DNA of 54,211 bases from Asterionella formosa (taxonomy: Eukaryota): NCBI GenBank assembly GCA_002256025.1, contig NKIB01007262.1:62001-116211 (forward strand), read 5' to 3'. Each line of letters starts with the position of its first letter. Within the stretch, counting starts at the first letter, position 1. A model generated the notes under the pieces. The model was not told where the DNA came from. It saw only the letters and a program-made list of their open reading frames with translations, and searched no databases. Positions 3,001 to 53,550 of the stretch are shown here, one piece after another. A program made the position numbers and the translations under genes.

Positions 3001-3494
3001 TCTCCGTCAATGGCGGAAACAAGAATAATACTTGTCTTCGGGTTCTCCTCCAAGTCTGAAGATACCAAGATCATAAGTGAATCTAAGGGCGTCCTCTGTC
3101 GGTTAGAAACGAAACTGATTTCTGCGGGACGTTGGAGGCCTTCCAAGGTAGAGACTCGACGAGTAGCAAGGACCTTCCCATCTCTTCCTCGCATCAATGC
3201 GATGGTTCCTCCGTCAGTCGACGCCACCACTATTGATCCATTGTGATTCGACGCCACCCGGCAGACGTGATACGGAGCGAAGGATGTTTGCCATGTCGTC
3301 CATTTATCATCGGATCGTTCACCCCCGATTCCATAGACTATAGAGGAACGCGCGACGGCATGCGAGCAGAGAGGAGACCCTTGCTGAATCGACGAACGCT
3401 TCCAATCGTTTCTTGTGAAGTGTTTGTCCCATCTAAGATTTTCCTTGTCGTCATCGGCCGAAACAGGGAGTTTCAGCGTTTCCAAAGAAGCCAT
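1..3494 (-). CDS. ROD/KNTC1-like kinetochore protein (RZZ complex subunit), 3'-truncated by window edge; exons 3494-1464 and 1386-<1
   Basis: ATG at 3494 (MASLETLKL) inside the 728-aa ORF. Phase-0 intron 1463-1387 (GTTAGT...CTAAC...ATCAG) joins to a long open frame heading to the window edge. The N-terminus is beta-rich (propeller-like), followed by a helical solenoid. KIRLLLQNNSFDEADKL and EASRLLVIDSIVQRYCG...LLDFVCRHISFESVLQDAIDLCDAF resemble recalled ROD segments. Gene structure is solid; identity is by eye. Confidence 0.7.
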
Positions 3495-5900: not shown

Positions 5901-6014
5901 ACAAGACCGTGTTATTGGTCTTCCAGTGTTAGTTGTTTCCATGTCAATGTTGTCGTCACATCGTTGGTAGTCCGGCAATGGCTTCCATGTGAATGTTATC
6001 ATCACATCATGCAT
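5415..6014 (-). CDS. Putative 20-aa tandem-repeat protein (NLTLVSIGDGGYANTRSHTN-like units), unknown function
   Basis: Stop-free 199-aa ORF across ~8 diverged units; unit spacings 60, 66 and 57 are all multiples of 3. Confidence 0.35.
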   Translation of the reverse strand: MHDVMITFTWKPLPDYQRCDDNIDMETTNTGRPITRSCTKNPTLVSIVDINPITQSRTNNLTLVSIDDRGYAITRSHASNLTLVSVGDKGYALKQSVIINLTLVSIGNGDYAKTRSCTNNLTLVSIGDGGYANRRSHTNNRTLVSIGDGGYANRRSHSTINNSTLVSKGDGGYAKTGSPTHNLTLVSIGDGGYANNEVK

Positions 6015-7249
6015 CCCTACTTTTACAGATTTTAAAATGTGGTGAGTTCATGAATCATCACGAGAACGAGCTTTTTGAGCATCAAAGCGACAGGGAATGG
6101 AATGCAGAGAGGTTGTGCGGGCCTGTTCGCTTAGTAATCCTGTATTTCCAAAGAACAGAATTGTAACTCATTTACTGGACTAGAATGTCACAAAGCGATT
6201 CTTAGAGGGTCCAAGGAGGCACTGACAAGCACGGATCAGGCAATGACGTGCGTGATGAATGAAATCATGTCAAAACGAATTTATTCGATTTGTTCAGGAG
6301 GAAGAGGATGATACAAGTTGGAAATGACAACAGTATCTAGAATATTCAATAAGATTGATGAATAATCTTGGTATCATTAAAGCATCATCCTCCACAATGA
6401 AGACCCTTGGACGATAGAATCGAAGGCGTGCATACAATGATATAGAAGATTTCTTTTGCAAGTCAACAGGAATCAATAAGGATAAGCCCCTCCAGTCTTT
6501 GAAGTCAATTCATATTTCATTGAAGAAACTTCCAAGCAATTCGGAATTGAAAATTTGAATTTGCTCTTGGTGGAGAAAATGTTTGAGTATGAGTATGATT
6601 ATGTGCATGAACATCTGGTTCCCACATTAGTTTCAAATTTGGGTTTGGAAATCAATGAGTGGTTCGGGTATGATCTGAGTGACAAAGAATTCCTGCTCTC
6701 CGAAAATTAATTGACAATAACAAACATTTACCACAGATAAGAATGCAATATCTATGATAGTAGAATGCATTTCATGCTGACATTTTCTAGATACTGGAAC
6801 TACAATCATATGATGTGTCAATTCGAAGACAAAATTGATTTCCTAGCTAGATAATGCATCCAACACCTGATAAGTTTGTTTACCTATTCGATTAGTGATC
6901 AGGGCATTCCAAGTAGCAACCTGATGGATTAAATTTGCTCACTATCAATTAATAGAAGCTGTGGTGACCAGAATTCCATTATCCACCACTAAAGCATCTT
7001 TGAACAGGGACCTTGATTTATAGGAATCTATGAAGCACAACTGCAAGCGGCTGGGACAACACATCATCTTCTTGTCCTGCCTGTTCAAATTGGTCAATGC
7101 TGGATGACTCCTGGTGAGCGAAGTTCATGCCAACATGATATCCTTAGTAGTTTATCAAAAACACACCTTGATCTCGTTCGGAATTGATTGCTTACCTTGC
7201 TTCATGAGGAGCTATCACCAAAGGTAAAACAAATGCGAACTTCAGAAAA

Positions 7250-8050: not shown

Positions 8051-8946
8051 TGCCAACTTATATTTGTCCAGAATTTTGGTTCTGTCATGATTTTTTGTCA
8101 CTGCCCATCATGGCTACTTCACTATATTACTAACTTCCTGTCCCACAATAGTCTTGCTCATTGCCATGGTTACTACGCCATCACTAACTTCCCCCTGTAT
8201 CTCAAGATTGACTGTTGTCAACTGGTGACAACTCCTAGCTACTAGTTTGTCCTTTAACATTTAGCTCACATTCTTATTCTGAAACATAGAGTCAACAAGC
8301 CATCATTCTAGTTACTACTCTTCAATTATCAACAGTTTCTTTAACACTTTCAAGTCACTGGGTATCATACGCTCGACTGGACTCTATCATCATACATTTT
8401 TTGTTCTTATTTGTGACGGTTCCAGTGAGATAACTACCGTTTCCCGGTAGACAATATTATTACCGGTACATAAAACGATGCACCCAACGCTCAGCCAAGT
8501 TTTTGTGTCAATTCGAAATTTATATAGCTGTCAAATATCAGAGTGCATACCATCATCAGTCAAAACGTATGCTACCTGGTACCGGTGGTATTTGTGAATG
8601 TTTGCATGAGAAACATATGTAGCTATTTTCCCTTCAGTCTGGCGATCTACACGAGTATAGGGTGGGAGTGAACTTTCCTTAAATCGCGTGCTGAATACAC
8701 CCCTCTGCGTTTACGCGCCTGCCTTAGTTCAAATTTTGTATTTTGTAATTGCTCTTTCGGTGTGCGGCTGTTTCCTGGACTCTTCCAGTTCAAACAATAC
8801 ACCACGTATTGCGTTGGTGCCGTTGCGAAGCTCTCCTTCATTTACTGAAATCAAGAAGTCTCTCTGTTGATCCTCTTCTTTGCATCTTTCCGAGAGATCC
8901 AGCTTTACGGGAATATTTCGCATTTGTGGACGCTGTTGGCGTAATC

Positions 8947-11212
8947 ATGGAGCCGAATTCTTCCGTTGGACCCGACCAGCATGATGGTACGGCTAGGATT
9001 CTACCGCAGTTCCCTACAGTTGCTCGAGTTCCTCCTGGTCAAGCACCACCTCATGCACCGAGTCCTTCCATGCTAAGCGGACAGTCTTACTATGGATATT
9101 CTCACGGCATACCTCCACCGCCTGCCAATGGATACGAAAGCCAAATCAGTCAACGATATCCCCCGTATCATCCGCCTTATCCAATTGCGAACGAACAACA
9201 ACGGGCAGGCGGTCCCTTTGGACCGCAAATCTCTTCCAAGTCACACAGTGGGGCATACGAACCCACTAACGGACCTTACTATCCGCAAGGATCCTTCGAC
9301 GGACCGCATACTTCAGGGGTCATTTCACGCGCGAATTTTGATCGAAATGCAACGGCCCCACTTCCGCAGCGAGAGGTTCTCCGGACCAATTCATCAGGAT
9401 CCTCTGGCTCTAGCAGTTCTGCTGCTGCTGCTGCTGTTCGAGCAGTATATCCTCCAGCATCTCGCTCGTATTCTCGCGGCGCTCCAGCCCTAGTCAACAA
9501 GTATGGCCATCATCCGGGATCGGGCGCTGGAATTACACTTCCTCTACCACCGCCTCCTCTTCGACCCACTGGACCTTATACTACTGCACAACTGGAATCC
9601 ATGCCCCGTGGACCAGGCAAGACTCTGGGAAAGCAATTGGAAGTAGAAAAAGCACAAGCTGCACGACAAAACGAACCGAACTCGAAGTCTGATCAGATAC
9701 AGCAGCGCAAGGGCCAGCACACAAAATCGTCGGAACACCTCGACCCTGATGAGAGAGCCTACACGGTCATTACTGGCCGCTCTGGAGCCACGTCTCCGAG
9801 TCAGATTGATTCATTTCGACGTGAAGATGTTGTAACCATGGGATGCACCTGCAAGAAATCGAAATGTCTCAAGTTGTATTGCATGTGCTTCGGTGCCTCT
9901 GTCGTTTGTGGACAAAACTGCCGATGCGTGGTTTGTCACAACACACCGAATCATGAGCAAGTCAGAAAGGATGCCATCCGGAACATCTTGGCAAGAAACC
10001 CTAATGCATTTGATACGAAATTCAAGAAGACAGAAAAAGAAGAAGTCGAAGAGGAACTCGCGGCTGTTGCGAGTGGTCCAAGCCGAGCGATTACTCACAA
10101 GTTAGGTTGCAAGTGTCGAAAGAGTTTTTGTACGAAAAAGTACTGCGAGTGCTATAATGCTGGAGTAAAGTGCAGTGGAAGCTGTCGTTGTGTCAGTTGT
10201 AAAAACATACCGGTAGGGGGAGTTGTATCACGAGAAGACGACCCTCCGAAAGGATCCGCATTTTCCATTTCAATGGCGGCCTCGAAAAATAACAAACTGT
10301 TGCCAGTTGTCCTTCGAAAGACTGGGGAGCCGTGGATGGTAAATTCCGCAGCTCAGAACCTGGTAAGTTGTATCTAATGGTTTCATTTGGTGCCATTTGG
10401 TGCACCTACTGATTGGTTCTAACATGGTCACTTTGTTTTTTCACAATTAGGCATTTTTAAGACACGCTTCTCCCGCTAAACCGGATCGAAAGACCGTGAG
10501 ACAACTCAGCGGGGGACGTGAAAACTCTATGGCTTCTTTACCTTCGCTTACTGCCTCAGAGACATCGATTTCACCTACAGAGCAGGAAGCTGATGGGGTC
10601 AATTCCCTCTTGATGGCGGCCTATGCCATGACGGAACTCTTCGCACAAGACGCACCTGCCGTGGCGGGAGGGGGAACACCCGAAAAACAACGGATTGAAG
10701 GAAAAGAGTTTCGTTCTCCAAAGCGTAAAACTCTGGAAAGTAGGAAGCCTGCGAGATTTTCGGATGTCGAAACACATCCGAATATAAAATCAGTCGAAGA
10801 ATCTGTGTCAGCGGTGGCAACCCCTATCACGGCCCGCAAGATGAAACGTACTCGAGTTGGCACGGTGGAAAAAGCGCGTCCGTCATCGTCTCTGGCGGCT
10901 GAATCGTCTTTCTTATGCGAGGAGAGGTTAGATTCAGCCCTTCGGTCGGAAAACCTTTCTGATGGCGAAGCCAGCGAGGATGAAGTTAGCAGTCCATCGG
11001 AGGGGATAGACGATACTGTTACTCCTGTTAAGCCATTTGCTACGCCACAAGGCACGAAGGATATCATTAACGTTATGACACCTGTTACCGCTCGATGTAT
11101 CGATTTCCAGCACATGGGTGTGACTGATGAGAGCGACAGCATGGTTGCGGAAGAAAAAAAAGAAAGCGAAACAGACATGGGGACGGATCAGTTAAAAAAA
11201 ATTGCGTATTGA
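8947..11212 (+). CDS. CRC-domain (tesmin/TSO1-like CXC, LIN54-like) DNA-binding protein; exons 8947-10362 and 10451-11212, ~725 aa
   Basis: Two CXC domains (GCTCKKSKCLKLYCMCF...; GCKCRKSFCTKKYCECY...) separated by the hinge RNPNAFDTK. Phase-0 intron 10363-10450 (GTAAGT...TTAG) joins the 542-aa and 238-aa ORFs in frame. Confidence 0.92.
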
Positions 11213-17511: not shown

Positions 17512-20500
17512 CTATAGAACCACACTCGAACATCGTAACTCAACAAGGTTATCAAGGATAAGATCAACAGTTGAACCAATAGCACTGGCCAAGTCTTCTT
17601 GGTCAGGAAGTGACAGGTCACAGTATTGAGTGACGAGATCACCATCAATCACTCCTTTTCGCCGGTCATTGCTACGACATCCACCGCGTCTAGGGGTCCG
17701 CCGGTACAATCTAAAGGCCCGTGGATTCAGGGCACAGTTACTCTCAAGTGCATTTGCCATGACACTTTGCAAAGCAGCCAATCTCCAGTAAACTGGCTCA
17801 CTCAGTGGGACCACTGCTCCAAAGCTGCCATCAGAAGTTCCGTAATGCAAACCTAGACGCTGGTCATCGTCAGTTCTCCCAAATAAGGAATCTTGTGATT
17901 TCAAAGCAGCGAGGGTACTGGTTGGCGTAGCTGAGTTGATTAGTAAACTCGATCGACAAAAGTGGCTTTGCAGAGCAACGGTTTGAGATCCTAAATGAAA
18001 ATCAGCTCGACAAACGAGCTTGTTTCCTCCCCTCGCTGCGGGATCACCAGGAGCGTATTGAAAGAACTGTAGGTTCTGCCGGTCATCATGGACGACGAAC
18101 GACATAGATCCTCCTCGGCTCATCAAGCCCGATGCAAACACTGGGACAGGTTCATAATCCTTTGCTAGTAGAGTCAAACTCTTGTCTGACTCCCGCCATA
18201 CGAGAAAATGCAAGGAGTCGTACGCGTCACTGAGAAGAAAAAATGTCTTGAAAAGCATGATGTCAAGGATTTGCATTTGTGCGCGAAAGAAACCAACCTG
18301 TGTCAGTCGGCCTCTCCCCCATTGTTCGACATTGATATCTGACCCTGCGCCGATGACTAGACGACTTCGTCCTTCACAGTTTAGGCATGTTAATGATGTC
18401 ACTGGGCCTTGGTAGACATCTTTCTGAAAATGCAAGGAAAGTTCGGCAACAGGCGATCCAGCTGCAAGAGCAGCCTCATCCTCGCGCTTGACTTCAAATA
18501 AAAGAATTCGCCCTTTGGAACTAACATCTTCGCCATCACCATCGACAATAGCAGTTCCCACAGTGATGAAAAGAGTATCCGGCCAATCATTATTGTCGCT
18601 GGGAGGACCACCCGGTTCTTCGTCACACTCGGTCAATGACATGACCTGCATAGTCAGTCCGTGTTCGAATTCACCAAGCTCATAAGAATCAACGACATTC
18701 CAGTTGTTGGACGCATCTACAATCCAGACTGCATATGCGGAAGCCTTGACCGGAGGGGCTCCACCAAACGTAAGGTCAACCTCAAAACAGTCCTCTCGTT
18801 CGATCTCCTCTACCCATTCCTGCTCCATATCAAAACCACCTAGGTCCGCTTCGACTTGCCGCTTGGTCTTCGCACTATCTCTCTCCTCCTTGATCCTCCT
18901 TCGCTCCATGGCACTCATACCATCTTCATTCAACTCTGATTGATCCTTTTCCACTTCGCGTGAGATGAGGACAGCGTAGAGTGGGTGAGCACCTGATGAT
19001 ACATGAGAGTCGTCGATAAATTGAATTCGGCGAATGGTCACACCAAAAAGTACTTTTTGAACTGAAAATCCACTTCCCGGCATTAAACCATTTGGGACAA
19101 AAATATTTGAGATTCTGGACAGAACATTAGAGGCGTCGTGATATAAAAAGTATAGAAAGACTACAACAAAGGAAAAGGTACAAACTTACCCCTTGAAAAT
19201 AGTAAGGCGTTGGCTTCCAACGCGCCCAATACGTTCGTGCAAGGTGACAAACCCATTACCAGATTCGCGTTGGTAGTCCTACAAAAAAAAGTGTAAGTCT
19301 TGATAAGGTAGCTAGGAGGAAAAAGCTATGACACACTAACCTTGAGACCAGAACAAAATCCAGTGATCGGCCTAGCCCTTCCCCCGGCAGGTGCAACATG
19401 CCTCAACCGATGATGAAGGAATTTCAGAGAGCCCCTCTCCGACACTAACCAGAGGGGCCTAGCGTTCGCGGCAAAAAGTCCATCATGTCCTGAAATTCCA
19501 ACGAACCTATGACATCGATTATGTCGAAAGGAAACGAGATCAGACATACATTCATCTGGTGCAGTCTTTGAAAGAATGCCTTTTCTTCGTAATTTTGAAT
19601 GATGTCGAGATTGTTCCTTGCTCGGGCGCTCCGAAAGTCGCATCGGCTGGCGTCCAAAGACGCAATTACTCCCCTTTTCTTGTTTATAGATGTGAAAGTC
19701 TCCAGAATCTGTTTCAATGGCAATATAGAGAGGATGAGAGGCAAAGCGTAACTGAGAACGCTTCGAAGATGCTGACGAATCTGTCGTGCCACAAAAGAAG
19801 AAGCGGATTTCACTAGTGAACATTTTATGTAGCCTTGGTTTGCGTGTGGCACTCGTATTCTCGTTTAGGCTTTCAAGTGCAGCACCACCATGACCGCATC
19901 CGCTTGTTTCCCAAACAGGCTGTGGAAAATTTCCGTCTGCAAATTCAGACACTTTGAAAACTTGAAGTAGACCAGATATCCTCACAACGGCTATGTAGCT
20001 CGTGAACGTGCTTCTAGTATTCTCGATGACGATTTGCGCGTTGTCATCAACACATGGCGCCTTAAATTGAGTCCCCGAGTCCCCGTACAACTCAAGCTCC
20101 TCTTCGTCAAATCCATCGTTAGCTAGAATGTCCTTCTCCCTTTGCGCAAATGGACTGCCCAGCCTTTCTTCTGCGCGAACAAACAAATCTTCGGCAGCAG
20201 AGAATACGTCAATCGCCGTTATTCTGTCACTTTGGTAAAAAAACTCTTCTTCATCTTCCCCAATATTGTCAGCTTCATTTTTGACTGTACCTAGAATCAT
20301 CGTCATATTGACGCTGTTGTCATTGGCAACAGTTGCAACCGTGGCACAACCAGTGGACCAGACACACCCGAAATACAACAGATCGCCGTTGACATCCCTC
20401 TCGATGGGAGTTACCGAAAGCAGGGCTCCACCTGACATGGATTCTACTAATGTGTGATCAAGGACTTGTAGTTTGCCATTTACTTCCGAAAGAATAACTA

Positions 20501-22790
20501 GTGCATACGAGAAGCCGTCGTCGGACTTCACTAGTAGCAAAATATGACCATCATGGAGTTCTGATGCGCTCAACAGCGTTGTCTGAGTTAGAACATAGCG
20601 CGCGTCTGCAAAAGTCCCCTCCGTTTTCTTGTCGGAAATTGACCATGATTCGAGATCAACTTCATTGAATTCAATATCGGAGGGTTGGTGGTTGCCTTGC
20701 TCCACCTTGACAGATGATGGTGGTTGCATACGAAGTACACTCATTCCTGCGATTCCTTCCTTGTTTGGGGTCATACCCATAACGATAATACCGCGTTTCG
20801 GTAAGCTAAAAATAGATTGAGCATTTAAACAATCTGCTTCAGCCAAAATGGAAGCATCATCTCGGCCAGGAGTCGTCACCAACGCAAGACCTCCACTTGA
20901 ACCGTAACCGCATGGCAATACATGAGCCGTGCCTCCAAGAACAGGTGATTTTGGTTTATCCCAAACGTTGTCAGCCGTATTCGTTGTTGGCTTTGCTGCC
21001 GATACGGGACCTTCACAGCCAGGCCCGATCGGACCCAACGCTGTGATCGTGTCAAGCGTTGTCAGCGAGCGAAGGACTGAAATGCGCACCAAGTTTGTTC
21101 GCTCTCTCTTTCTCTTGATTTCATTAGATGCCATTTCATTCTCTTCTTCATCACTACTTGGAGGAACTACATCTGGAGTTGTAAGTGCTTTTGAAGCTCG
21201 CGCTTCACTCGTAGCTCCAAATGGAGCATAGAGAGCCTCTTCTTCGCCGCGCATAATGATTTCATACTCATCTTCTTGTGCTTCCATCCCCGTTTCTTCA
21301 TTCGTCCCCCATTGAATTGATCGTATCTTTCTCTTTTTCATTCCTTCTAGCTTGGCTGTATCACCTAATGTAATGCCCGACTCCAATGTGTATCCTAAAA
21401 GAGTTGAATCTCCAATGCGACTTCCAACGAAAGTAATTCCCATGGAAAGATTGTTCGAGGCTTTCGATCCCAACAAATTCTGCATGATTTCTTTTGGTAT
21501 GCTTCCAAAGGGAAGCGTAATCATGTCTCCCACCTCACCAATGCCACGAAGACTTCGTCCCAACGGCATCATGTTCCAGCCATCCCCTATATGTTGTAGA
21601 CAATAGAGCTGACCATTTCTTAGTGACACGAGAGCAACAGAATCATTTATAAATGTCAATCGAGATCCGTCCAATTGAATGGAAAGTCGAGGAAGAGGCC
21701 ACGGATTTGGTTGCAGTTGGTCCAACAGCTCGGCAGGGCACGTCGACTTTGCCCACCCATTGACAGTTAGAATACGGCTCACTCGACCGCAATTTTCAAT
21801 GTCAAATACTTCATTCGGACCCACCACCAAACAACCAATCTTTCCGATGGAATATAATTTGCTGGCATCAGAAGGTACTGCAACAGACCACAAAACGGCA
21901 GCCTGTCGATGCGAGACAGTGACCGTCATTGCGGTGGCTAAGAGACCGTAGGCCGTTCCTCCAGCACCGTGAGGACGGCCCAAACGGCCAGACCAAGTCC
22001 ACCCATGTTGAGGGTTAGAGTGTAGAAGCACAATTGTTGGTTCCAAGTAGCCAGGTAAAAAACACGAGGATATAACATCTCCAAATCCATGAGCAATGGA
22101 TTGTTGGTTGGAAGCTGGATTATTTTGAATGGAGGAAGCCATAGCAGTGGCTTCGACAGAGGATTTCAAGTTCTTTTTCAGAATTGATAGCGGAAGTAAA
22201 TATGGCTCCAAGGCATTCCAAGAGTGCATTCCTTTCGAGGTCTTGATTCGTAGAAGCGTGATAGCGGCGACGGCAACGCCGCCCCCCAAAATCACAGCCA
22301 ACGTCACTAAGTTTGGATTCTTTTGCTCTTTTGAAGCCCGGAGATCTTGCTCCAACGGAGTGACTGATCCCAGAGAAGCTTCTAGGAGTGCAGGTGTCAG
22401 GTCCAACAGGGAATTCGCCATAAGTATATAGCGTTCCGATGTGACCGTTTGTGGAGGTGCAGAAGTGACTGAAACCACCGCCAATCGAGGATGTCCCGCA
22501 AAGCCAATCAAGAGCGAATCAGATTCATCTCCAGGAGATGGAATTGAATCCAAATAGCAAATGCTTCCAGACAAACCTGCAAAGGAATGTTCGAGCAATA
22601 ACTTGCCTGTGGACTCTTCGATGGAATAAATCAGGATCGACGAGTTTTGGGCCGTCACGAGATTTGGAAGCTCGTGCTTCCCAGTCGTAATATGTGCCCA
22701 TGTGGAATGCTCAGACCCCTGGTTCCCTTCAAAAACCGATAGCACACAGGGATGCAAAGGCCGTGCGTTGGGTGCTGCCTTGGAGGCCAT
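17512..22790 (-). CDS. CPSF1: Cleavage and polyadenylation specificity factor 160-kDa subunit; exons 22790-19341, 19278-19190, 19114-17512 (~1713 aa)
   Basis: CPSF_A/DDB1-like motifs FVGSRIGDSTLL, CGYGSSGGL, GEDVSSKGRILLFEV, LVCRADFHLG, LNPRAFR and VIDGDLVTQY. Introns 19340-19279 and 19189-19115 are GT-AG and restore a continuous frame. Confidence 0.93.
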
Positions 22791-23173
22791 GGTGAACTAA
22801 TTGTGTTTCGATCCTTTTATGGTGCCGATGCCATCAAATCGATGGATGATGTACACGGAATACCTGCATCAAAAGACTGCCACCGGCACCAAGTCAAGTT
22901 GCGGTCATTTTGCTTAAACAAAGTACCTGGTACCAGGTAAAGAGTAGCAATTCTTTCTATGTGTTGTCGTCAACATACCAGTACTCGAATTATTTTTACC
23001 GACCGGTAATATAACGGGTAGACAACTGAAACGTGTAATTAAATGATGAATATAGTACAAATATTTATGTAGATATGAACGGACACTATACTACCGGTAA
23101 GTAGCGCATTACACAAATTATGACTAGATTCGTAGTGTATATAAATTATAAGCTTACTGGTCAGGATAGTCAG

Positions 23174-23246
23174 TCCGCTATGATGTAGGTGGTTAACATA
23201 CTTGCCTTTCACGCAGGATCCCCGGGTTCGAGTCCCGGTAGCGGAA
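23174..23246 (+). tRNA. trnE-TTC: tRNA-Glu (anticodon TTC)
   Basis: Acceptor stem TCCGCTA/TAGCGGA, D-arm ATGT...ACAT, anticodon arm CTTGC-CT TTC AC-GCAGG (TTC at 23208-23210), T-arm CCGGG-TTCGAGT-CCCGG. Confidence 0.96.
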
Positions 23247-23351
23247 CAGCTGTTTCTATTTTGTAGTTGATGTTCGTTTTGCTCGAGATGGACAAAGCAC
23301 CAAAACATTGTGTCAAAAGAAGCAGCCAATTCAAATCTTGTTATTCATAAT

Positions 23352-26209: not shown

Positions 26210-26770
26210 CAGTTGAACACTTTCATAGATCAAAGCCACACTTTTTATATCGCACATTGTATGTATTCTATCATCTGTTAAGCTTTTAAATAATTCAAAT
26301 ATATACACTGCAAGAGGATATCATTGTTTTCCACGACTTTCTGGTAAGAAAAGATTGCCAATAAAATTATTTCATGGATAACAATATTTAGCTCTTTGAT
26401 CTTCTTTTAAAATCTATATATCCTACTACTTAAAGTTAATTTTGATCATTCATTTTTTTATGATATCATTATCAAATGATCTATATGCACTTATCTATCA
26501 AATAGGAAATAGACATAATACTTTACAGATAACCATATTGCATACCCTCCATGACCAATAGATACCAATGCTACGTTGCTTGTACGAGAACATGTTCTTG
26601 CGTACCCTTCATCACCTAGTATAGATACCAATGTCACCTGTTTTGTACGAGAATGTGTTAAAGTGTACCCTCCGTCACCTTTAGATACCAATGTCACCTT
26701 GCTTTTACGAGAACGTGTTCTTTTGTACCATCAAGCACCTGAATAGGTACCACTGTCACCTTGTTTCAAC
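26210..26770. repeat. Dispersed repeat copy 2 with ~4 units of the 60-bp repeat
   Basis: GATACCAATG at 26561, 26624 and 26684, with a degenerate unit at 26746. The flank is homologous to 4800-5330 with an internal deletion. Confidence 0.85.
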
Positions 26771-27327
26771 GAAAGCTTGTTCTTGCGCTATGTAGTATTA
26801 CGCACATCTTCTATCTATTATGACGTAATGATGACGATGATAGAATCATGTGATAATGAATGATTAGTTAATTTTTGTAAACACAAGATAATAATATTCA
26901 GGCTAAGGCCCCGTCTTACGGTGCCCGAATTACGAAGATTCAGTCGCCCGGATACCTGTTGGGCGTTTAATCTTCGTATTTTCGTATTTTCGTCCCTTAC
27001 GGGCTAAATAACTCGCAAATGGGGGGGGGCGGGGGGTCACGAAGATTAATCTTTGTTTGCCCGAATATTTCGAGGGTCATCCCCGATATTGACCCAATCT
27101 TCGTATTTTCTTGAACAATCTTCGTTTCCTAAAGATTAATCTTCGGGCAAACGAAGATTGTCTCCACCAATCAGAATGGCGGAAACAATATATAATCGCC
27201 ATCACATATACTGATGATATAGTATTCGATACTTCGATACTTTTATTGTAGTAGTATTGTCATTATTATTACCGTAGATATTAATTCTTACTTTTAATAC
27301 TTTTGTTTTATGATAATAATTTGTAAC

Positions 27328-28514
27328 ATGACGACTCTGCCAACGCTATTGTCAACCTTCCTGGCACATTATCAACAGTGTGTGCAGCCATGGAAGCAAC
27401 AATGGTTGTCATGGCAACTACCAGCAGTCTTGCCAGCTGCATTGCGAAATGAGCTGGTTTCTCAGTTCTATTTGGAAGCTCAATCTGAAAGAGGGAATCA
27501 GCAATCGCCGTCCAACAGCAATTGCCATCCAACAACATCTGCTAAGCGAAAAAGAAAAAAACGACCTCTGGTGTCAAGGGAAGAGTCATGTTGGTGGAAG
27601 AAGTTCCTAACAAACGAAAAGCGCATCTTACAATTGGACATAAACACATGGGCAGCAAGACTCTTTCGCAAAATTTTTGTCTTCCATTCGACATATTCTT
27701 GAAACTGTATGATATGACAATATCTAATGGTTGGTATGATCCGCACAGGAAAGATTGCACCAATCTTCTGTGCAAGGACCTTGAGTTGCTCCTCCTGGGT
27801 GTTCTCTACACTCTAGCAACCGGTGCTTCCCATTTGTATGTGTATATTCTAACTGAAATCTCTAAATAGGTACACCGAAAATTTTTCATTCACTGGACTT
27901 CAAAGTTTGCAGAAAAGAAGGATGAATATGTATACATACTGAGAGAGGAAGGGGAAGATGATGACCAACTGCAACGAATTCTAAATGATTACAGTTCATT
28001 TGGGCTTCCAGGTTGTATAGGCTCAGTCGATTGTGTGCACATTGGATGGAGTCGATGTCCTGCCTACCAGAATAATATATTTAAAGGTTCCAAGGGGTAT
28101 CCTTCAGTTGTTTTTGAGGTGGTTTCTGATCACAGAAGAAAGATTTTATCAATCAGCTACCTACACCCAGGAACAAGAAATGACAAACACATTGTCAAGT
28201 TTGATGCAGCTGTTTCCAATCTACACGATAGAAATTCGTTTCTTGGCAGGCAAGAGTGGAATGTGCTCACTGTTGAGTCTTCTATTACTTGTAAAGGCTA
28301 CTATTTCATTTGTGATGGAGGGTACTTACGATGGCCAGTGTTGATTTGTCCAATTAAATACGGCAATGAACATGGAAAAGAAAGGGCATGGGGTATGATG
28401 GTGGAGTCAGTTCGAAAAGATATTGAATGTATGTTATTTCTTAAGAACTGGAACAACTTGTCTCAACCTGAGAATTTCGTAAAAGATGTAACAAGAAGCA
28501 AGTTAGCAAGATAG
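27328..28514 (+). pseudogene. Harbinger-type DDE transposase (plant transposon protein / DDE_Tnp_4-like), disrupted
   Basis: GLPGCIGSVDCVHIGW, GTRNDKHIVKFD, ICDGGYLRW and VESVRKDIEC; frameshift near 27680 and in-frame stop at 27867-27869. Confidence 0.85.
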
Positions 28515-31684: not shown

Positions 31685-32890
31685 ATGTCGCCGTAGTGAA
31701 TCGAAATTGAGATGAATCGAAATTGAGATGTGCCACAATGGCCTTCTCCGTTTCGGAGCAGCTACAAATAGTCTACAGCGATAACTCTAGCAAGTACAAT
31801 ATAGAAAAAGATGGAAAGGATGAGTAGCTGACAATAAGGAATTGAATCCGTTATTTCGTTAAGAAACAGCTGTTGCATATTTCAACCTTGCATTTCGCCA
31901 TAGTGAGTCAAAATTGAGATGTGCCGCAATGGCATTCTCCATTTCGGAGCAGCTACAAATAGTCTACAGCGATAACTATAGCAAGTACAATATAGAAAAA
32001 GAATCAGAGGAGGAGTATCTGTCAAAGATTGAATTCGTAAATTCGCTAAGAAACAGCTGTTGCATATTTTTATTATTCAATGCATGTTGCCATAGTGAGT
32101 CAAAATTGAGATGTGCCGCAATGACCGTCTCCTTCTCGGAGCGGCTACAAATAATCTACAGCAATCACTCTAGCAAGTACAATATAGAAAAAGAAGCAAA
32201 GGACGAGCAGCTGTCATCGATTGAATTCGTAAAATTGTTTAAAAACAGCTGTTGCATATTTTAACATTCAATGCATGTAGCCGTAGTGAGTCAAAATTGA
32301 GATGTGCCGCAATGGTCTTCTCCGTTTCGGAGCAGTTACAAATAGTACAGCGATAACTCTAACAAGTACAATATAGAAAAAGAATCAGAGGAGGAGTAGC
32401 TGTCAACGATTGAATTCGTTAAATTGTTTAGAAACAGCTGTTGCATATTTTAACATTCAATGCATGTTGCCGTAGTGAGTCGAAATTGAGATGTGCCGCA
32501 ATGGCTTCTCCTTTTCGGAGCGGCTACAAATAGTCTACAGCGATGATTCTAGCAATTACAATATAGAAAAAGAAGGAAAGGATGAGCAGCTGTTATCGAT
32601 TGATTTCATTTATTCATTTAGGAACAGCAATTGCATATTTTAGCATTCAATGCATGTCGCCGTAGTGACGAGTCGAAATTGAGATGTGCCATAATGTCCT
32701 TCTCCGGTTTGGAGCAGATAGCAATAGCCTGAAGCGATAACTTTGGCAAGCACAATATAGAAAAGAAGCAAAGGATGAATAGCTGACAACAATTTAATTC
32801 GTAAATTTGTTAAGAAACAGCTTTTGCATATTTTAACATTCATTATATGTCGCCATAGCGAGTCAAAATTGAGATGTGCCGCAATGACAT
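31685..32890. repeat. Tandem array A, ~191-bp unit, ~6 copies
   Basis: GAGATGTGCC recurs at 31725, 31916, 32108, 32299, 32488, 32681 and 32871 (spacings 189-193). Confidence 0.95.
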
Positions 32891-33249
32891 TCTTTTTTCT
32901 GATCGGCTAGATTACATCTATATTGATAACTGTAGCAATAAAAATTGGCTGTAAAGGCAAGGGCCAAGGAGATGAGGACTATCAACTTCATTGAATTCAA
33001 CCACTCCATAGCTAACCTGTATTTTTCGCAATTTTTCGCAATTTTTCTGTACACGCACCACCAGTCAATGCACTCCAAAAATATTTGCTGATGTCTGATT
33101 TTACCAATAAAAATCTTAGCAGTTTAGTAGATGAATGCAATTTGGTAGAAAATAATAGCTTTGAGTTTTGGTGCGCCCCTGCTGATGTACTATTTATCAT
33201 CACGGCATACTAGCACATCCTATCGTAGTAGTAAATCAAAAATGAGAAG

Positions 33250-36200
33250 TGCCACACATCCTGATGCCTCCTCTGATAAATATATGTTCATTATGAGTAC
33301 GTCGACATTTGCCTTGGCTGCATTGATCTTTTGTACATCGAATACTATGCTGGATAGAAATCGGCCTTAAATTGGTTGAGAAAGATGGTTTTGAATTTTC
33401 GTTTCTACAGCATTGATCATATCAGTCCACCATCACCGAAAAATTACAATATTTATACATCCTGATACCTTCTTTTATGCTCGTTCTCAGAAAATCAACA
33501 TTCGCAATGACGGCATTGATCTCGTGTACATCGAATACTTTGCTGGATATAAATCGGCCTGAAATTGGTGGAGAAAGATGATGGTTTCGAATTTTTGCTG
33601 CCACAGCACTGATGATCAGTCCACAAGCATCCGAAAATGTACACATCCGGATGCCTCCTTTGATCAGTATATGTTCGTTCTCAGAATATCGACATTGGCC
33701 ATGACGACATTGATCTCGTGGACATCGAATTCTATGCTGGATAGAAATCAGCCTTAAAATGGTGGAGCAAGATGGTTTGGAATTTTTGTTGGAACAGCAC
33801 TGGTCATGCAGCAGTCCACAGCAAGCACCGAAATTTTACACACCATCCTGATGACCAAATTGATCAATATATGTTCGTTTTTAGACTATCGATATTCGAA
33901 ATAACGGCACTGTTTTTGTGTACATCGAATACTATGCTGGATGGAATCGGCCTTAAATTGGTGGAGAAAGATGGTTTGGAATTTTTGTTGCCACAGAACT
34001 GATGATCAGTCCACAAGCACAGCAAATTAATACATCCTGACGTCTCCTTTGATCAAAATATGTCCGTTCTGAGAACATCGACGTTCGTAATGACAGCATT
34101 GATCTCATGTACATCAAATACTATGTTGGATAAAAGTCGACTTTAAAGTGGTGGAGAAAGGAGGTATGGAAGTTTTGTTGCCACAGTACTTATGATCAGC
34201 CAGTCTACAAGCAACGAAATTTAATTTCACATGCTGATGACCAATTTAGTCAATATATGTTCGTTCTGAGAATATCGACATTGTCCATGACGGCATTTAT
34301 CTCGTGTACATCGAGTACTTTGCTTGATAGAAAGCAGCGTTAAATTGGTGAAGAAAGATGGTTTGGAATACTGGTCATGCAGCAGCCCACAAGAACTGAA
34401 ATTTTACACATCCTGATGACCAATTTGATCAATATACTTTTGTTCTGAGAATATCGATATTCGAAATGACGGCACTGATCTCGTGTAAATAGAATACTTT
34501 GCCGGATAAAAATCAGCCTTAAATTGGTGGAGAAAGATGGTTTGGAATTTTTGATGCCACAGCTCTGATGATCAATAATGCATCCGAAAATTTACACATT
34601 CTCATGCCTCCAGCATTGATCAATATATATTCGTTCTGAGAAAATTGACAATGGACATGACGACATTGATCTCGTGTACATTGAATACTAGGCTGGATAG
34701 AAATCAGCCTTAAAATGGTTGAGCAAGATGGTTTGGGATTTCCGCTGCAGAAGTAAACAGCAAAGACCAAAAACTATTTATACACAATCCTGATGACCAC
34801 TTTGATCAATAGATGTCCGTTCTGAGAATATCGACATTCGAAAAGATGGCAGTGATCTCATGTACATAGAATACTATGCTGGATTAAAATCGGCCTTAAA
34901 TTGGTTGAGAAAGATGGTTTGGAATCTGTGTTGCCACAGCACCACAAGCATCCGAAAATTTTACTCATCCGGATGCCTCCATTGATCAATATATAGTCGT
35001 TCTGAGAATAGCGAAATTTTCATGACAACTTCGATCTCGTCTACATCGAAAACTTTGCTTGATAGAAATCGGTCTTAAATTGGTGGAGAGAGATGGTTTG
35101 GAATACTGGTCATGCAGCAGTCCACAAGAACCGAAATTATGCACATCCTGATGACCAGCAATTTGATCAATATATGTTCGTTCTGAGAATATCGATATTC
35201 GAAATGACGCCACTGTTCTCGTGTACATCGAATACTTTGCTTGATATAAATCGTTCTTATATTGGTGGAGAACGATGGTTTGGAATGTTTGCAACCACAG
35301 CCCTGATGTTCAGTTCACAGCAAGCACCGAAATTTTATACACCATCCTGATGACCAATTTGATCAATATATGTTCATTCTTAGAATATCGACATTCACCA
35401 TGACGGTATTGCTCTCGTAGACATCGAATACTATGTTGGATAAAATTCGGCTTTAAATTGGTGGAGAAAGGTGGTTTGGAATTTTTGTTACCACAGCACT
35501 TATGATCAGTGCACAGCAAGCACCGAAAATTTACACACCCTCTTGGCTGATGACCAGCTCAATTTATATGTGTTTGTTCTAAGAATATCGAGATTCGAAA
35601 TGACGGCAGTGATCTCGTGTACATCGAATACTTTACTGGATATAAATCGGCCTTTAATTGGTGGAGCAAGATGGTTCGGAATTTCCGTTGCAACAGCACT
35701 GGTCATGCAGCAGTCCACAGCAAGCACCGAAAATTTACACACCATCCTGAGGATGACCAATTCGATTTATATATGTTCATTCTAAGAATATCGACATTCT
35801 CCATGTCGGCATTAATCTTTTGTATATCGAATACTATTCTAGATAGAAATCAGCCTTAAAATGGTGGAGCAAGTTGGTTTGGAATTTTTGTTGCCACAGC
35901 ACCAATTACAATCAGTCCACAAGCACCGAAAATTTATTTCACATCCTGATGAACAATTTGATCAAAATATGTTCGTTCTTAGTAAAACGACATTCATTAC
36001 GACGACATTGATGTCTTGTTCATCGAATATTATGATTGATATAAATTAGAATTAAATTGGTGGAGAAAGATGGATTGGAAGTTTTGTTGCCACAGCACTG
36101 ATGATCAGTCCACAAGTATGCGAAAAATTACACATCCGGATGTCTCCTTTGATCAATATAAGTTCGTTCTGATCATATCACCATTCGACATGACTGCATT

Positions 36201-36730
36201 GATTTCGTGTACATCAAATACTATTCTAGATAGAAATCGGCCTTAAATTGGTTGAGAAGGGTTGTTTGGAATTTTTGTTGCTGCTGCACTAATAATGATC
36301 AAGCCACAAGTACCGAAAAATTACCCACCATCCTGACGACCAGTTTGATCAAGGTATGTTCGTTCTGAGCGAGCATATTGGCATTGATCTCGTGTAAATC
36401 GAATACTATGCTAGATAGAAATTGACAATGAATTGGTAGAGAAAGATGGATTGGAATTTTGGTTAAAGCACTAGTCATCAGTCCACAGCAGACACCTAAA
36501 ATTTACACATCCTGATGCCTCCTTTGGACAATATACGTTCCTTCTGAGCGTATCGACATTCGACAAGAAGCCTTTGATTTCGAGTACATCAAATAATATA
36601 TTAGATAGAAATCGGCATCAAATTTATTGAGAAAGAAAATGAATTGGAATTTAGGTTGCTACAGCACTGGTCATCAGTCCACAGCAAGCACCGAACATTT
36701 TACGCATCCTAATGACGAATTTGATCAATA
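33250..36730. repeat. Tandem array B, ~180-200-bp unit, ~18 diverged copies
   Basis: Recurring GATCAATATATGTTCGTTCTGAGAATATCGACATT...TACATCGAATACT...CCTTAAATTGGTGGAGAAAGATGGTTTGGAAT...CACATCCTGATG. Confidence 0.95.
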
Positions 36731-45039: not shown

Positions 45040-45425
45040 CACACCTGGTACCAGGTACAGTATAAGGTAACCAAGTACTCTACCTGGTACTGAACTTGTA
45101 TTCGAGGGTACCAGGTACCTGGTACCGGTACCAGGTGAGCGATCTCGCTAAAGTACATACATACATAGGGTTAGGTATACATAGATAAATCAGAACTCTA
45201 CTTTGGTGTGTCAACCTAGATACAGTAGGAGATCGAGTTGCACACAAGGATTAACTGATAACCTCATATATTCAACAAATACTACGTACTAAGTACTTCT
45301 CCCGGTAGCTAGATACTTCACCAGGTACCCCCAGGTGGTCCAAGGTCTCTCACCTCGTACCAGTACCAGGTACTAACTGGTTTGGGTCCGTGGTATATAC
45401 ACCAGGTATCGGTACCTGGTACTCG
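45040..45425. repeat. GGTACC(A/T)-rich low-complexity cluster
   Basis: e.g. GGTACCAGGTACCTGGTACCGGTACCAGGT at ~45107-45136. Confidence 0.8.
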
Positions 45426-46267
45426 GAGTGGCACCACGTGTATCGGGAATCATGTGTGCAAGAGTTTTCATCCGCCGGGCACAGAAATACGACCGTTATC
45501 ATGCTAACGGGTAGTCAAAGGGACGGGAGGTCTACACGACTGCCGAACCAGTCACGACTTATCGTGTAGAACTCAATCCCTTCTTCGTTTGAAGGTGCCT
45601 GGAGTAATGTGGTATTTACTGGATGAGAACATTGGTGTCCGCCCACCCAGGATTGCATCCGGGAACGGCACTCCTGCTTCTGATAGGACTGGGCACGTAC
45701 CTGCATGAAAATGGTCAACTGCTCACCTTTTCGTTTCCTACATACACACATGTATTTGTCGCTTTTGAGCGAATTCAAATCGGAGAGTTGGATTCAAATG
45801 TGAAACGGCACATGGTGAATCTAAGGGTCATATAAGTCATACACATTTATTTAGCACATATTGAATCTAATTATGTTATGCTCAATACTTCTACAAAGCA
45901 GGCCGATGTGATCGCCAACGCTCGTTGGGAGTTCACGTTTGTCGTTCGGATCCCCCTAGCTGTTGAATCCTACCAGCATCCCTGCGAGGCAACCAGAGTC
46001 TTTCATCGTAGTGGCATGCTTGGTATCAGGTCACCCAGCTTCGTTTAGTGGATTTAAACCTTGTTTGAATCTTGTGCACAAACTTGTGTATACCAATTAA
46101 ACCCGCACAGAGCCAGTTTAGCTGGGATACGGTACCAGGGTACCAGGTACCCTAGTACTACCCCTGTTCAATTCTCGAGTTTACCCGCACGGGTCAGGTC
46201 AACATCAGAAAAGCAAACAATTTTTTCTCATAGTACGACAAGGTCCAATTTCTTAAGCAACCCAACC

Positions 46268-47093
46268 ATGAGAGTCTCCGTATTTACCTTTGTGTGCCTT
46301 TCAGCAGTGGTTAACGCCAAGCTAGCTGTTCGAACTCGACGACATGCTATCGTTCATTCCGAGCACAAGAATGAAGGACCTGACGAAAGAGCCCTTGTAG
46401 AAGAGGAGGAAGAGACATACTTTGGAAGAGTGATGGCAGGTGTGAGCAGCTATCCAAAGGTAAGCATACACCATTGTTATACTCTAATAGTGCACCATTG
46501 CGCAGCTCTGCTTGAATGCTTCGTCGCGCTGAGCGGTTGGAAATGTCTTGATTTCATTTGCTGTGCTATGAATCAGTTTAAACTGCCCGTTGCATTGGAC
46601 TTCGCTAAAATTATTTGCAATCCGATCTTCAACATAGGACGGAAAGGGCTCCCCAGTACCAACCGATGACTATGCACCATCCAGCAAGAGCGGCAAAGGA
46701 AAGGGCTCCAAGGGAGGTAAGGGCTCCAAGGGAGGTAAGGGCTCCAAGGGAGGCAAGGGCTCCAAGGGAGGCAAGGGCTCCAAGGGAAGCAAGGGAGGTG
46801 ACGATGCCTATGCTCCACCATCCAGCAAGAGCGGCAAAGGAAAGGGAAGCGCCAGCTCCAAGAGCGGCAAAGGAAAGGGAAGCGCCAGCTCCAAGAGCGG
46901 CAAAGGAAAGGGAAGCGCCAGCTCCAAGAGCGGCAAAGGAAAGGGAAGCTCCAGTTCCAAGAGCGGCAAAGGAAAGGGAAGCTCCAGTTCCAAGAGCGGC
47001 AAAGGAAAGGGAAGTTCCAGTTCCAAGAGTGGTGGAAAGGGAAGCTCTGTTGGCAATGAATACGCGTACCGAAGTTTGGGCGTAGAGGCTTAA
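46268..47093 (+). CDS. Secreted silaffin/cingulin-like Lys-Ser-Gly-rich biosilica protein candidate; exons 46268-46459 and 46638-47093, 215 aa
   Basis: Signal-peptide-like MRVSVFTFVCLSAVVNA, acidic pro-region with RAL, phase-0 intron 46460-46637 (GTAAGC...ATAG). Exon 2 encodes (KGSKGG)n and six SSKSGKGKGS[A/S] units and ends YRSLGVEA-TAA. Confidence 0.85.
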
Positions 47094-47389
47094 ACAAGTC
47101 ATCAATAATATATGAATGCAATGTGACCATTGAAGGGATCCAGGAGTGGATGTTGCTGTGAGTGACACATTCTGGCATCCCTTTTATGCACATTTGTCGC
47201 TGCAAACCCATTTCTGATCGAGTGCCCCAAGGGGATTTATTTATTATTTGTATTAAAATCTTAATGTCTACAATCAGGCTAGTGAATGCGTCCATACACT
47301 TAGGTTTATTGCTCAATCTGAAGTTTCATTTCATGACAAAACTATTAGAGGTGATGGTATTACCCACCCTAGACAAGGCAGTATATATA

Positions 47390-47720
47390 TACCGGTACTG
47401 AGCTTTGTCGAAGGTGCTATTTAACCACCATTGCACTACATACCGACGACTTGATGTACCAGGTACCTGGTACCCAGTCTAAACGAGTACCGGTACATCG
47501 CTACATAGCTTTTTTGTCGAAGGTGCTACCGGTACTCCATTTACAACTTTGGACAACATACCTACTACTTTATGTGCCGGTACCTGGTACCCTGTCTACC
47601 TGGTACCTGGTACCTGGTACCAGGTACCCTGTATTCAAGTACATGTACATCGCGAGCTTTATCGAAGGGGCTAGTTAACTACCAGTGCAGTACACAGCTA
47701 CGACTATACCGGTATGTATG
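47390..47720. repeat. GGTACC-rich cluster with three GCTTT..TCGAAGG.GCTA copies
   Basis: Copies near 47400, 47508 and 47653; (CCTGGTA)n run at ~47599-47628. Confidence 0.75.
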
Positions 47721-52291: not shown

Positions 52292-53550
52292 TCAAAAGAG
52301 CTCAATCAAATTGTTTCGCAATTGAAAGTTCTCACCTTCAATCATGTACTTCATTCTAATATTCTTGAAATCAAGAAATGTATGAACATTTTCATGATTT
52401 ACTTGGTCAACCAAAAATCCATCCTGAATATTTTCAAATAGATAGTCAATTATATTTTCAGTTTTCCACTTGTCCTCTTTGATCATGTTGTGCAAAATGA
52501 TGCATGCAATGATTACACTGTTCATAGCAGCCACTGAACAAAGTGTTCATGGAAGTGCAATGATCCTCCACCTAGTAGTCAGTAGAACTCCAAATGCTTG
52601 CTTGACGTCCTTGCGCTGTGCCTCCTGACGCATCGAGAAATAACTCTGCTTTGGAAATTGTGGCTCTGCAGTTGTCTTGACAAATATATGCCGATTTGAG
52701 TATATTCAATCAACCAAATAACAATCCAGATTGTGTTGTTGGCTGTTGATGGTAAAGTGCACTTTTGGAGTCCTTCCAAATGACAAATCATGATAAAAAG
52801 TGAAAATGATCCAAGATATTAAGATCATTGTTTGCTCTGGGGCATTCCAAACCATGCATGCCAGAACTAAAGTCTACAATCAACCACAGCTTCCGAAGCA
52901 ATAGCCACCACTCCTTCTTTTCCTTGATACTATGCCCCTCTGTGTGCTTTGGGACAGTTTTTCCACTCCCATTGAATGACATCCAATGAACCAAGAAGCC
53001 CCGGCCAACCCTTTTCTTCATGCAAATTTAGAATCATCTCAAGGTACTCCTTGGTCGGAGCTCTAAGATTCTCTTTCCCATACCTGTTGATACTTGCGTT
53101 ACAGAAGAAGTGTTGCGGATTGGTGAGTATTGTTAACTCTGACATCATTGTTAAATTGTCCATTTGATCAGCTGACATTCCATAGGATAACATGCAAAGC
53201 GCCAAGGTAGGTTTTTGGTGTGGCGAAAATCCCAGCAAACATAAGTCATCCTTCTTCTGAGAAAAATAAGAATCCAAAACAAACAAATGATTTAGAATCT
53301 TCTCAAATAATGACTGGCTCATCCGTAAGCACCTCCAGAACCTTGCTGTTGAGTGAATCGGATTTTCACTGAAATTATCCTTTTTCAAAAGCTTGTTGCA
53401 GTCTGACCGAAAACGATTGAGATTGGATGCCTTTCCCACCTTTGATCCTCTTTGCTTGTTTCTTTCTTGCTTGGCCTTCTCGCTTTGCTTCCGTATTTAA
53501 TGGAAGTGGACAAAGCGATTGTCATCTGATGAGTCGCTATCATTGCTCAT
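52292..53550 (-). pseudogene. PIF/Harbinger (Pong-like) transposase pseudogene
   Basis: RMSQSLFEKIL, GWPGLLGSLDVIQWEWKNCPKA, NNDLNILD and ACIILHNMIKED; ATG at 53550; several stops and frameshifts. Confidence 0.88.

Follow-up and report, generated by a model that had tools for sequence, protein, structure and literature searches.

A two-exon gene that is spliced and transcribed was found in a diatom, at positions 46268-47093 on the forward strand of a 54,211-nucleotide (nt) stretch of the Asterionella formosa contig NKIB01007262.1 (contig positions 62,001 to 116,211; NCBI GenBank assembly GCA_002256025.1). This whole stretch is called the window, and all positions are counted from its first letter. 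The gene encodes a product of 215 amino acids (aa) rich in Lys, Ser and Gly, which we read, with a confidence slightly above even, as a lineage-specific protein of the silaffin type that would be embedded in the diatom biosilica. This reading was adopted because of the diatom host, the signal-peptide-like N-terminus, the RXL domain and the polycationic Lys/Ser/Gly modules of the product.

Of the organic agents that take part in diatom silica formation, silaffin-like proteins are understood best, and the characterised ones stem from a handful of marine model species. To our knowledge, they cannot be found by homology. The present gene is an RNA-verified example from another diatom lineage, sampled in lake water. 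Prokaryote-style calling of open reading frames (ORFs) misses it wholly, and the one database record that exists for it, P0115, follows the unspliced frame. The gene leaves the current view of biosilica formation unaltered, and diatom genomes already hold many silaffin-like genes.

A spliced and transcribed gene in a diatom

Public sequencing runs carrying part of the stretch numbered 20, of which 18 were recorded as RNA, from 13 studies. Runs X7-X20 carry small shares of it and support no claim on habitat or distribution. Four runs were examined. X1 is a polyA library whose label reads algae metagenome, X2 and X4 are metatranscriptomes of lake water from a single study, and X6 carries an organism label. 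The gene and its flanking untranslated regions (UTRs) were laid out as follows.

46226..46267, forward strand: 5' UTR and transcript start region, approximate, placed by the depth rise in X1 and holding no upstream ATG
46268..46459, forward strand: exon 1, 192 nt or 64 codons (peptide P0001), opened by the ATG at 46268
46460..46637, forward strand: intron of 178 nt, GT..AG, which begins GTAAGC and finishes CATAG
46638..47093, forward strand: exon 2, 151 codons plus the TAA at 47091-47093 (peptide P0002)
47094..47262, forward strand: 3' UTR with approximate end, RNA contigs of X2 and X4 reaching 47253-47262

The joined coding sequence contains one stop, the terminal one. Exon 1 closes on a whole codon and 178 nt is not a multiple of three, therefore only the spliced form reaches the Lys/Ser/Gly frame, and the unspliced frame terminates at 46669. 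A plain ORF list cannot show the 215-aa protein, because exon 2, which has no Met, needs the removal of the intron. No ATG was present upstream within 46200-46267. A preliminary description of this DNA, made from its letters, had proposed the 178-nt GT-AG intron together with a 215-aa product hidden from the ORF list, and both the coordinates and the joined coding sequence agreed with it.

The predicted 46459/46638 junction was also found in RNA, in the predicted frame. One contig in X1 and one in X4, which belong to different studies, joined 46457 to 46636 and skipped 178 nt, and the skipped segment reads GT..AG once the cut is moved two places to the right (46459/46638). In X2 and X6 the junction appeared as loose ends, at 46460 with the exon-2 start beyond and at 46636 with the exon-1 end before. 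Depth was 0 in all four runs over the three wholly intronic bins (46478-46603) and amounted to thousands over exon bins, depths that are unfit for ranking genes, with repeat bins summing variants and possibly other organisms. The zero intronic depth beside the thousands in exons argues that the cover represents RNA and not contaminating DNA. RNA contigs over both exons came from three studies, and exon 1 lay under RNA contigs in each of the four examined runs.

At the 5' side, the depth in X1 rose from about 107 to 7216 in the bin 46226-46267 and to 59205 in the next bin, and the polyA run X4 showed depth 0 ahead of the bin 46268-46309. At the 3' side, ATTAAA is found at 47252 and AATATA at 47107, both within the 3' UTR. 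The two boundaries are approximate, as contigs cannot reveal the true 5' or 3' ends of a transcript. Cover was thin or absent before 46226 and after 47262, which was not counted as marking the transcript ends. A 515-nt contig of X6 joined 47157 to 47278 in the 3' UTR, dropping 120 nt bounded by GT..AG, and this gap may represent a deletion variant or an intron that is optional in the 3' UTR.

The host was examined through the CPSF160 gene of the window, which lies at 17512-22796 on the reverse strand in two long ORFs (Pfam CPSF_A, E 7e-53). Its C-terminal ORF showed 99% identity to a transcript-derived protein and 72-74% to further proteins. Among named diatoms the identity was 69-70% for Pseudo-nitzschia, 68% for Nitzschia inconspicua, 65% for Seminavis, 62-63% for Thalassiosira, 60% for Stephanodiscus and 55% for Aulacoseira, and only 26-33% for plants and fungi. 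In a tree of 21 rows the window sequence stood among the diatom rows, outside a fork of ten raphid pennates (support 85/89) and outside Thalassiosirales (100/100). The position of this single gene would fit either an araphid pennate or a non-thalassiosiroid centric. The supposition that the host is a silicifying organism was thus confirmed by a CPSF160 that is 55-70% identical to named diatom proteins and placed among diatoms. The examined runs carrying the transcript were from lake water and an algal sample.

Layout of the predicted protein and published screens

The features of the 215-aa protein are listed below.

46268..46318, forward strand: predicted signal peptide for the endoplasmic reticulum (ER), residues 1-17, cut after V-N-A, judged from a heuristic n/h/c layout
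46319..46396, forward strand: putative 'RXL domain', residues 18-43 (26 residues), ending in R-A-L (41-43), with RTRR at 22-25
46686..46793, forward strand: lysine-enriched region of module A, residues 81-116 (36 residues), with 11 overlapping K[SG][SG]K motifs
46800..46820, forward strand: acidic Tyr/Pro linker DDAYAPP, residues 119-125, a similar DDYAP standing ahead of module A
46821..47051, forward strand: module B, residues 126-202, six 33-nt units SSKSGKGKGS[A/S] and one degenerate unit
47070..47078, forward strand: C-terminal R-S-L, residues 209-211, four residues ahead of the C-terminus

The first 17 residues have Arg at position 2 and an uncharged core at 3-16 with a mean Kyte-Doolittle value of 2.06, small residues at -3 and -1, and Lys after the predicted cut. 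By heuristic, the N-terminus, called signal-like in the preliminary description, thus has an n/h/c layout as in ER signal peptides. In diatom plastid pre-sequences an aromatic residue or Leu is expected just after the cut. By that rule, the Lys found at this place would speak against a plastid pre-sequence. The single Cys of the protein lies inside the predicted signal peptide. No hydrophobic or transmembrane (TM) segment was found after residue 17, the maximum 19-aa hydropathy being -0.05, and no N-glycosylation sequon was present in the 215-aa protein.

Behind the RXL domain, residues 44-77 include three Tyr and five Glu in a row and have a net charge of -5, and they are followed by the two cationic modules. 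The whole of module A (residues 78-118) has 13 Lys, zero acidic residues and a net charge of +13, and is built of 18-nt units coding for KGSKGG (5.5 copies, 96% matches). It overlaps 11 consecutive Gly-X-Y triplets at residues 87-119 (46704-46802). Module B has 20 Lys, 32 Ser, no acidic residue and a net charge of +20, and its 33-nt repeat is present in 6.2 copies with 98% matches. The last residues (203-215) hold Tyr-x-Tyr, the R-S-L and four further residues. Tyr is present at each module boundary (residues 76, 122, 206 and 208), and the whole protein contains 0 Trp and 6 Tyr in 215 aa (2.8% Tyr).

As read, the units are KGSKGG four times followed by KGSKGSKGG in module A, and SSKSGKGKGS[A/S] six times (three with A, three with S) followed by SSKSGGKGSS in module B. 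The preliminary description had given these units, about 34 Lys in exon 2, and RAL and RSL sites. The units of both modules proved correct, exon 2 does hold 34 Lys in its 151 residues, and the two sites are present at residues 41-43 and 209-211.

The composition of exon 2 is dominated by Gly (43 of 151, 28%), Ser (43, 28%) and Lys (34, 23%), with 26 KG dipeptides and a calculated isoelectric point of 10.2. Its lysines are regularly spaced, the Lys-to-Lys gaps being 2 (seven times), 3 (17 times), 4 (once) and 6 (six times), with 12 or 14 at the linkers. When compared with shuffles that keep the composition of the sequence, exon 2 was rich in K[SG][SG]K, with 17 motifs where shuffles averaged 2.4 (17 was reached by 0 of 10000), and devoid of KK dipeptides, of which shuffles averaged 6.1 (2 of 10000 were as low). 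Residues 18-215 contained two RXL against a shuffle mean of 0.09, and 46 of 20000 shuffles reached two. A single-sequence AlphaFold model gave a mean pLDDT of 46.6 and no secondary structure.

We next set these properties beside published screens for silica cell-wall proteins, each of which is described in a passage of the source cited. In the screen of Scheffel 2011, proteins with an ER signal peptide qualify when Ser makes up 18% or more and Lys 10% or more of 100 aa, and 89 genes in T. pseudonana are quoted for it (PMC3478156). In the 215-aa protein the best 100-aa segment, starting from residue 94, has 34 Ser and 26 Lys, and the whole protein has 22% Ser and 17% Lys. The screen of Brembu 2017 asked for a signal peptide and for K[S/G][S/G]K motifs that recur at distances of 1-6 residues, and most of the resulting KXXK-motif proteins are said there to carry pentalysine clusters and RXL as well (PMC5501833). 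Here 11 such motifs overlap or abut at residues 81-116, and six more recur every 11 residues with KGK between. The pentalysine cluster, after Poulsen 2013, is five non-consecutive Lys in 12-14 residues, as defined in excerpts of PMC5501833 and PMC9650480. Windows of 12, 13 and 14 aa with Lys at both ends and at least five Lys numbered 2, 7 and 5 in the protein, 14 in total.

A third screen, for lysine-enriched regions (LERs), asked for a signal peptide, the absence of a TM segment and two or more K(X)2K motifs spaced by four residues at most. According to PMC9650480, two new proteins from the screen for signal peptide, no TM segment and LER or UM both labelled the frustule. The cluster of 11 motifs at residues 81-116 is of this kind, in a protein that has no TM segment and, by heuristic, a signal peptide. 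According to a passage of PMC5525289, biosilica proteins typically have an RXL domain, in which the signal peptide precedes some 30 aa that close with RXL, and the same layout is given in a section of PMC4557024. In our protein RAL ends 26 residues after the predicted signal peptide, and RSL stands near the C-terminus. Silaffins and cingulins are characterised in the former passage as fully random coil, with a single Cys or none (PMC5525289).

The proposed silaffin-like label was thus upheld, the sequence falling within three published screens with its signal peptide taken from the heuristic. The cingulin half of the proposed label did not hold. Cingulins are described, in a section of PMC4557024, as KXXK regions alternating with Trp- and/or Tyr-rich regions, and the 215-aa protein has no Trp and few Tyr, those beside the Lys modules being confined to boundaries of 7-9 residues. 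These screening classes predict frustule association and silicon response and prove neither, and they are not families by descent.

Sequence relatives and other features of the window

The exon-2 peptide was searched against a collection of 5.8 billion proteins at lengths of 83-265, and none of 8000 candidates reached E <= 0.001. In the same collection the exon-1 peptide, searched at longer lengths, gave 33 candidates, of which P0115 was the only match, proteins of 35-112 aa lying outside the word search. An exhaustive search of the exon-1 peptide against 1.84 billion representatives again returned P0115 only. P0115 comes from an independent contig of 1370 nt and represents the ORF of this locus read without splicing. 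Its 64 exon-1 residues are all identical (64/64), and 5 of 138 flanking and intronic codon positions differ, the called start codon excluded. This may be a weak hint of constraint on exon 1, the numbers being small.

Pattern matches on JGI metagenome contigs numbered 593 for the exon-1 peptide and 597 for the exon-2 peptide, and none was confirmed; the ESM Atlas gave no usable match. No named silaffin was among the matches of the exon-1 or exon-2 peptide searches. Correction for low-complexity bias probably hides compositional look-alikes, and the empty searches do not prove that the protein stands alone. The sole Pfam match for the gene, LEA_4, was rejected at 16.3 bits against a cut-off of 51.1. 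Matches in the PDB to collagen-model peptides, (PKG)10 with E 0.036 and others with 0.046 and 0.34, were treated as compositional and weak. In the literature, a full-text search with four short repeat motifs found seven papers, none of them on diatoms, and no paper on silaffins in freshwater araphid genera was among the 25 matches listed of 424. The sequence itself is undescribed, and its kind, a lineage-specific silaffin-like protein, is expected for a diatom.

Relatives of the gene were seen in the RNA contigs, many of which match the locus at 90-99% nucleotide identity. Within 46770-46860, loose ends were found before 46790 in 9, 26 and 39 contigs (X1, X2 and X4, respectively) and behind 46854 in 5, 11 and 11. 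They join a module-B-type unit straight to the acidic Asp-Asp-Ala-Tyr linker, an order absent from the gene, and one further contig variant has a Cys-containing acidic insert following a module-A unit. Such joins indicated that these samples contain transcripts of alleles, paralogues or orthologues whose modules stand in another order. The suggested search for paralogues had a divided outcome, as a six-frame scan of the window for Lys/Ser-rich stretches found no second repeat-type gene, and the relatives with reordered modules, whether alleles, paralogues or orthologues, were met in RNA. The ORFs around the gene (42.7-50 kb) belong to no Pfam family.

Several further features were observed in the window. 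The motif GGTACC[A/T]GGTACC occurs in 16 copies with at most one mismatch, against 0.03 expected, at 3636, 8571, 11831, 22922, 45047-45423, 46139, 47455-47628 and 51679, and short 7-nt arrays of this type are found at 45107-45136 and 47579-47628. Single copies stand within about 20-180 nt of the upstream ends of long ORFs in several genes, and one stands 129 nt before the ATG of the silaffin-like gene. The motif may be a promoter-proximal or a transposon-derived element. ORFs for PIF/Harbinger-type transposases lie at 27870-28514 (forward) and 52930-53496 (reverse), with Pfam Plant_tran at E 1e-18 and 1.5e-10 and DDE_Tnp_4 at E 2.5e-07 on 27870-28514 only. Satellite-like tandem arrays occupy 5427-5917, 26543-26785, 31713-32893 and 33324-36730, with periods of 60/120/180 nt, 191 nt and 179-387 nt, the 60-nt family being present at two separate places. 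A protein with a Tesmin/TSO1-like CXC domain is encoded at 8749-10377 on the forward strand (Pfam TCR, E 2.4e-21), and a tRNA-Glu(TTC) gene lies at 23174-23247 on the same strand.

Candidate functions and comparison with known systems

If the product is a silaffin-type protein, its precursor would enter the ER co-translationally, by analogy with Sil1p, the silaffins of T. pseudonana and the LER proteins. The signal peptide and residues 18-43 would be removed at R-A-L, and the last four residues would perhaps be trimmed after R-S-L. In the ER and Golgi, the spaced lysines would become methylated or polyamine-bearing and the serines phosphorylated, and the dense Lys clusters (K-x-x-K, five Lys in 12-14 residues) would send the protein to the silica deposition vesicle and the forming silica. 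There, the modules could assemble with the phosphate groups, the acidic head and long-chain polyamines, speeding and shaping silica deposition, and the finished protein would end embedded in the wall. The acidic head beside two cationic blocks would permit self-assembly by the protein's own opposite charges.

Several points weigh against the silaffin-type reading. No homologue was found for either exon, so no function can be transferred by descent, and the likeness to silaffins is one of composition and motif only. Divergence of such kind has been reported for silicon-responsive silaffin-like genes. The signal peptide is a prediction by heuristic, and disorder of the protein is suggested, as weak evidence, by a model made without an alignment. 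The mature product would be expected to be one polypeptide of about 165 aa with no RXL between its units, unlike the short peptides of Sil1p. Finally, it is by analogy that we infer the localisation in biosilica, the modification of Lys and Ser, the cleavage at RAL and RSL, the response to silicon and the silica-forming activity.

[quoted passage not shown] As a cingulin-type or surface-matrix protein it would there be part of valve microplates, girdle-band microrings or a coat on the surface, and its boundary tyrosines would provide the cross-links. Its task would be that of a template or protective layer, and not that of a soluble silica-precipitating silaffin. The LERs nearest to modules A and B are, in Table 1 of PMC9650480, those of the cingulins CinW2 and CinY2 and of the girdle protein Tp12162, and the Lys/Tyr-rich AC3362 of the pennate Amphora coffeaeformis, a protein with KG repeats, was located in the insoluble matrix with exposure at the surface according to a passage of PMC4220933. 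The 26 KG dipeptides of exon 2 and the Tyr at every module boundary (76, 122, 206 and 208) are consistent with this. Cingulins, however, need KXXK in alternation with Trp/Tyr-rich regions, as described in a section of PMC4557024, and a protein with 0 Trp and 6 Tyr does not provide these, so we regard a matrix role as unlikely. It is decidedly unlikely that the product is a secreted polycationic extracellular protein with no tie to silica, as in mucilage, cell-to-cell linking pads or adhesive. Such a role would agree with a signal peptide by heuristic, no membrane anchor and highly hydrophilic repeats, with RNA contigs from lake-water community RNA covering the gene, and with the fact that composition screens of this type were built for diatom adhesion proteins, as stated in part of PMC4220933. 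In that same part, however, the Amphora candidate that was localised is a cell-wall protein and not an adhesive (PMC4220933); Lys clusters of this type target green fluorescent protein fusions to silica in T. pseudonana, as a passage of PMC9650480 reports citing Poulsen 2013; and biosilica proteins typically show the RXL-domain layout, according to the excerpt of PMC5525289.

A failure of secretion, with the product acting as an intracellular basic low-complexity protein, for example in nucleic-acid binding, or an mRNA that is not translated as read, appears very improbable. The signal peptide was judged by heuristic only, translation itself is presumed, and several frames on both strands stay open through the repeats. 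The confirmed junction, however, fixes the Lys/Ser/Gly frame behind the only upstream ATG, with none in 46200-46267, and the N-terminus has a positive n-region, an uncharged core of 13-14 residues and V-x-A before the cut; the identity of exon 1 in P0115 (64/64, against 5/138 flanking and intronic differences) adds a weak hint. A collagen-like scaffold, in which the Gly-X-Y run of module A would form a fibrous triple helix, is extremely improbable. The 11 consecutive triplets at residues 87-119 invite the idea, the PDB matches were solely to collagen-model peptides (E 0.036-0.34), and a passage of PMC4220933 notes a likeness between an insect collagen chain and a region of Amphora AC714 rich in Lys, Gly and Tyr. 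The run, however, is without Pro, has one Lys per triplet except the last and meets no counter-charge before the final Asp, and these features should work against a triple helix. The 11-residue period of module B breaks the Gly-X-Y register. Moreover, the PDB matches are weak and composition-driven, and the model without ordered structure is weak evidence in the same direction.

A further-reaching proposition, doubtful though with some chance, is that the protein is the chief silaffin of its lake diatom lineage and founded a small family of shuffled modules. It would then be a single uncut 'block-copolymer' silaffin (about 165 aa) in which an acidic head is joined to two different polycationic blocks, the first being a perfect Gly-X-Y run, and it would self-assemble by its own opposite charges with no need of being cut into short peptides. 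Paralogues or alleles that reorder the modules would then tune species-specific silica patterns, and the joins of module-B-type units to the acidic Tyr linker in RNA contigs are a reordering of this sort. The design is unusually simple and regular, and its two near-perfect modules with strictly spaced lysines could conveniently serve in the search for the lysine-modifying enzymes and the RXL protease, as well as in biomimetic silica work. The transcript is a possible marker of cell-wall synthesis in freshwater community RNA.

Among known proteins, Sil1p of C. fusiformis has a signal peptide, an RXL behind it and basic Lys/Ser units R1-R7 that are severed at RRIL or RRNL, according to a section of PMC4557024. 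The same section proposes KXXK clustering as what is probably recognised in lysine modification, and Lys clusters together with phosphoserines as the signal for targeting to silica. The 215-aa protein shares with Sil1p the N-terminal signal peptide, here a predicted one, the RXL shortly after it and the basic tandem Lys/Ser repeats at the C-terminal side, and it is of similar size (265 aa in Sil1p). The units of Sil1p end in RRIL or RRNL and give short peptides, whereas the 215-aa protein has no RXL between units, and its units are Gly-rich (28% Gly) and of two different modules. The likeness to Sil1p is known from its description in a review and not from a sequence alignment.

Eight LERs of 11-40 aa are listed for T. 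pseudonana proteins in Table 1 of PMC9650480. Going by that table, the LERs of CinW2, CinY2, Tp12162 and Tp5357 have K(X)2K with X being Ser or Gly and no more than four residues between motifs, as in module A, whose 36 aa put it in the length class of LER2-Y2 (40 aa) and LER-12162 (36 aa). Compared by eye, the 7-mer KGGKGSK is common to module A and LER-12162, and KSGKG is shared with several others. In the same source Tp12162 has an RXL five residues from its C-terminus, and RSL stands four residues from the end of the 215-aa protein; LER proteins have a signal peptide and no TM segment, as our protein appears to have. In cingulins, LERs alternate with long Trp/Tyr-rich regions, whereas the 215-aa protein has only the short Tyr boundaries of 7-9 residues, and Lys-rich modules make up about 55% of its precursor, unlike in LER proteins. 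This likeness to LERs is at the level of motifs and is not evidence of common descent.

AC3362 of Amphora coffeaeformis is likewise described, in part of PMC4220933, as secreted, Lys-rich, with KG-dipeptide repeats, found by composition in a non-model diatom and proved to be associated with the cell wall, and it differs in being rich in Pro, Thr and Tyr (8 mol-% Tyr) and in belonging to the insoluble matrix, whereas the 215-aa protein is Ser/Gly-rich with 2.8% Tyr. The closest operational classes are the silaffin-like proteins (SFLPs) and the KXXK-motif proteins of T. pseudonana, both of whose definitions cover the 215-aa protein with its predicted signal peptide, in a host of a different diatom lineage that was sampled in fresh water.

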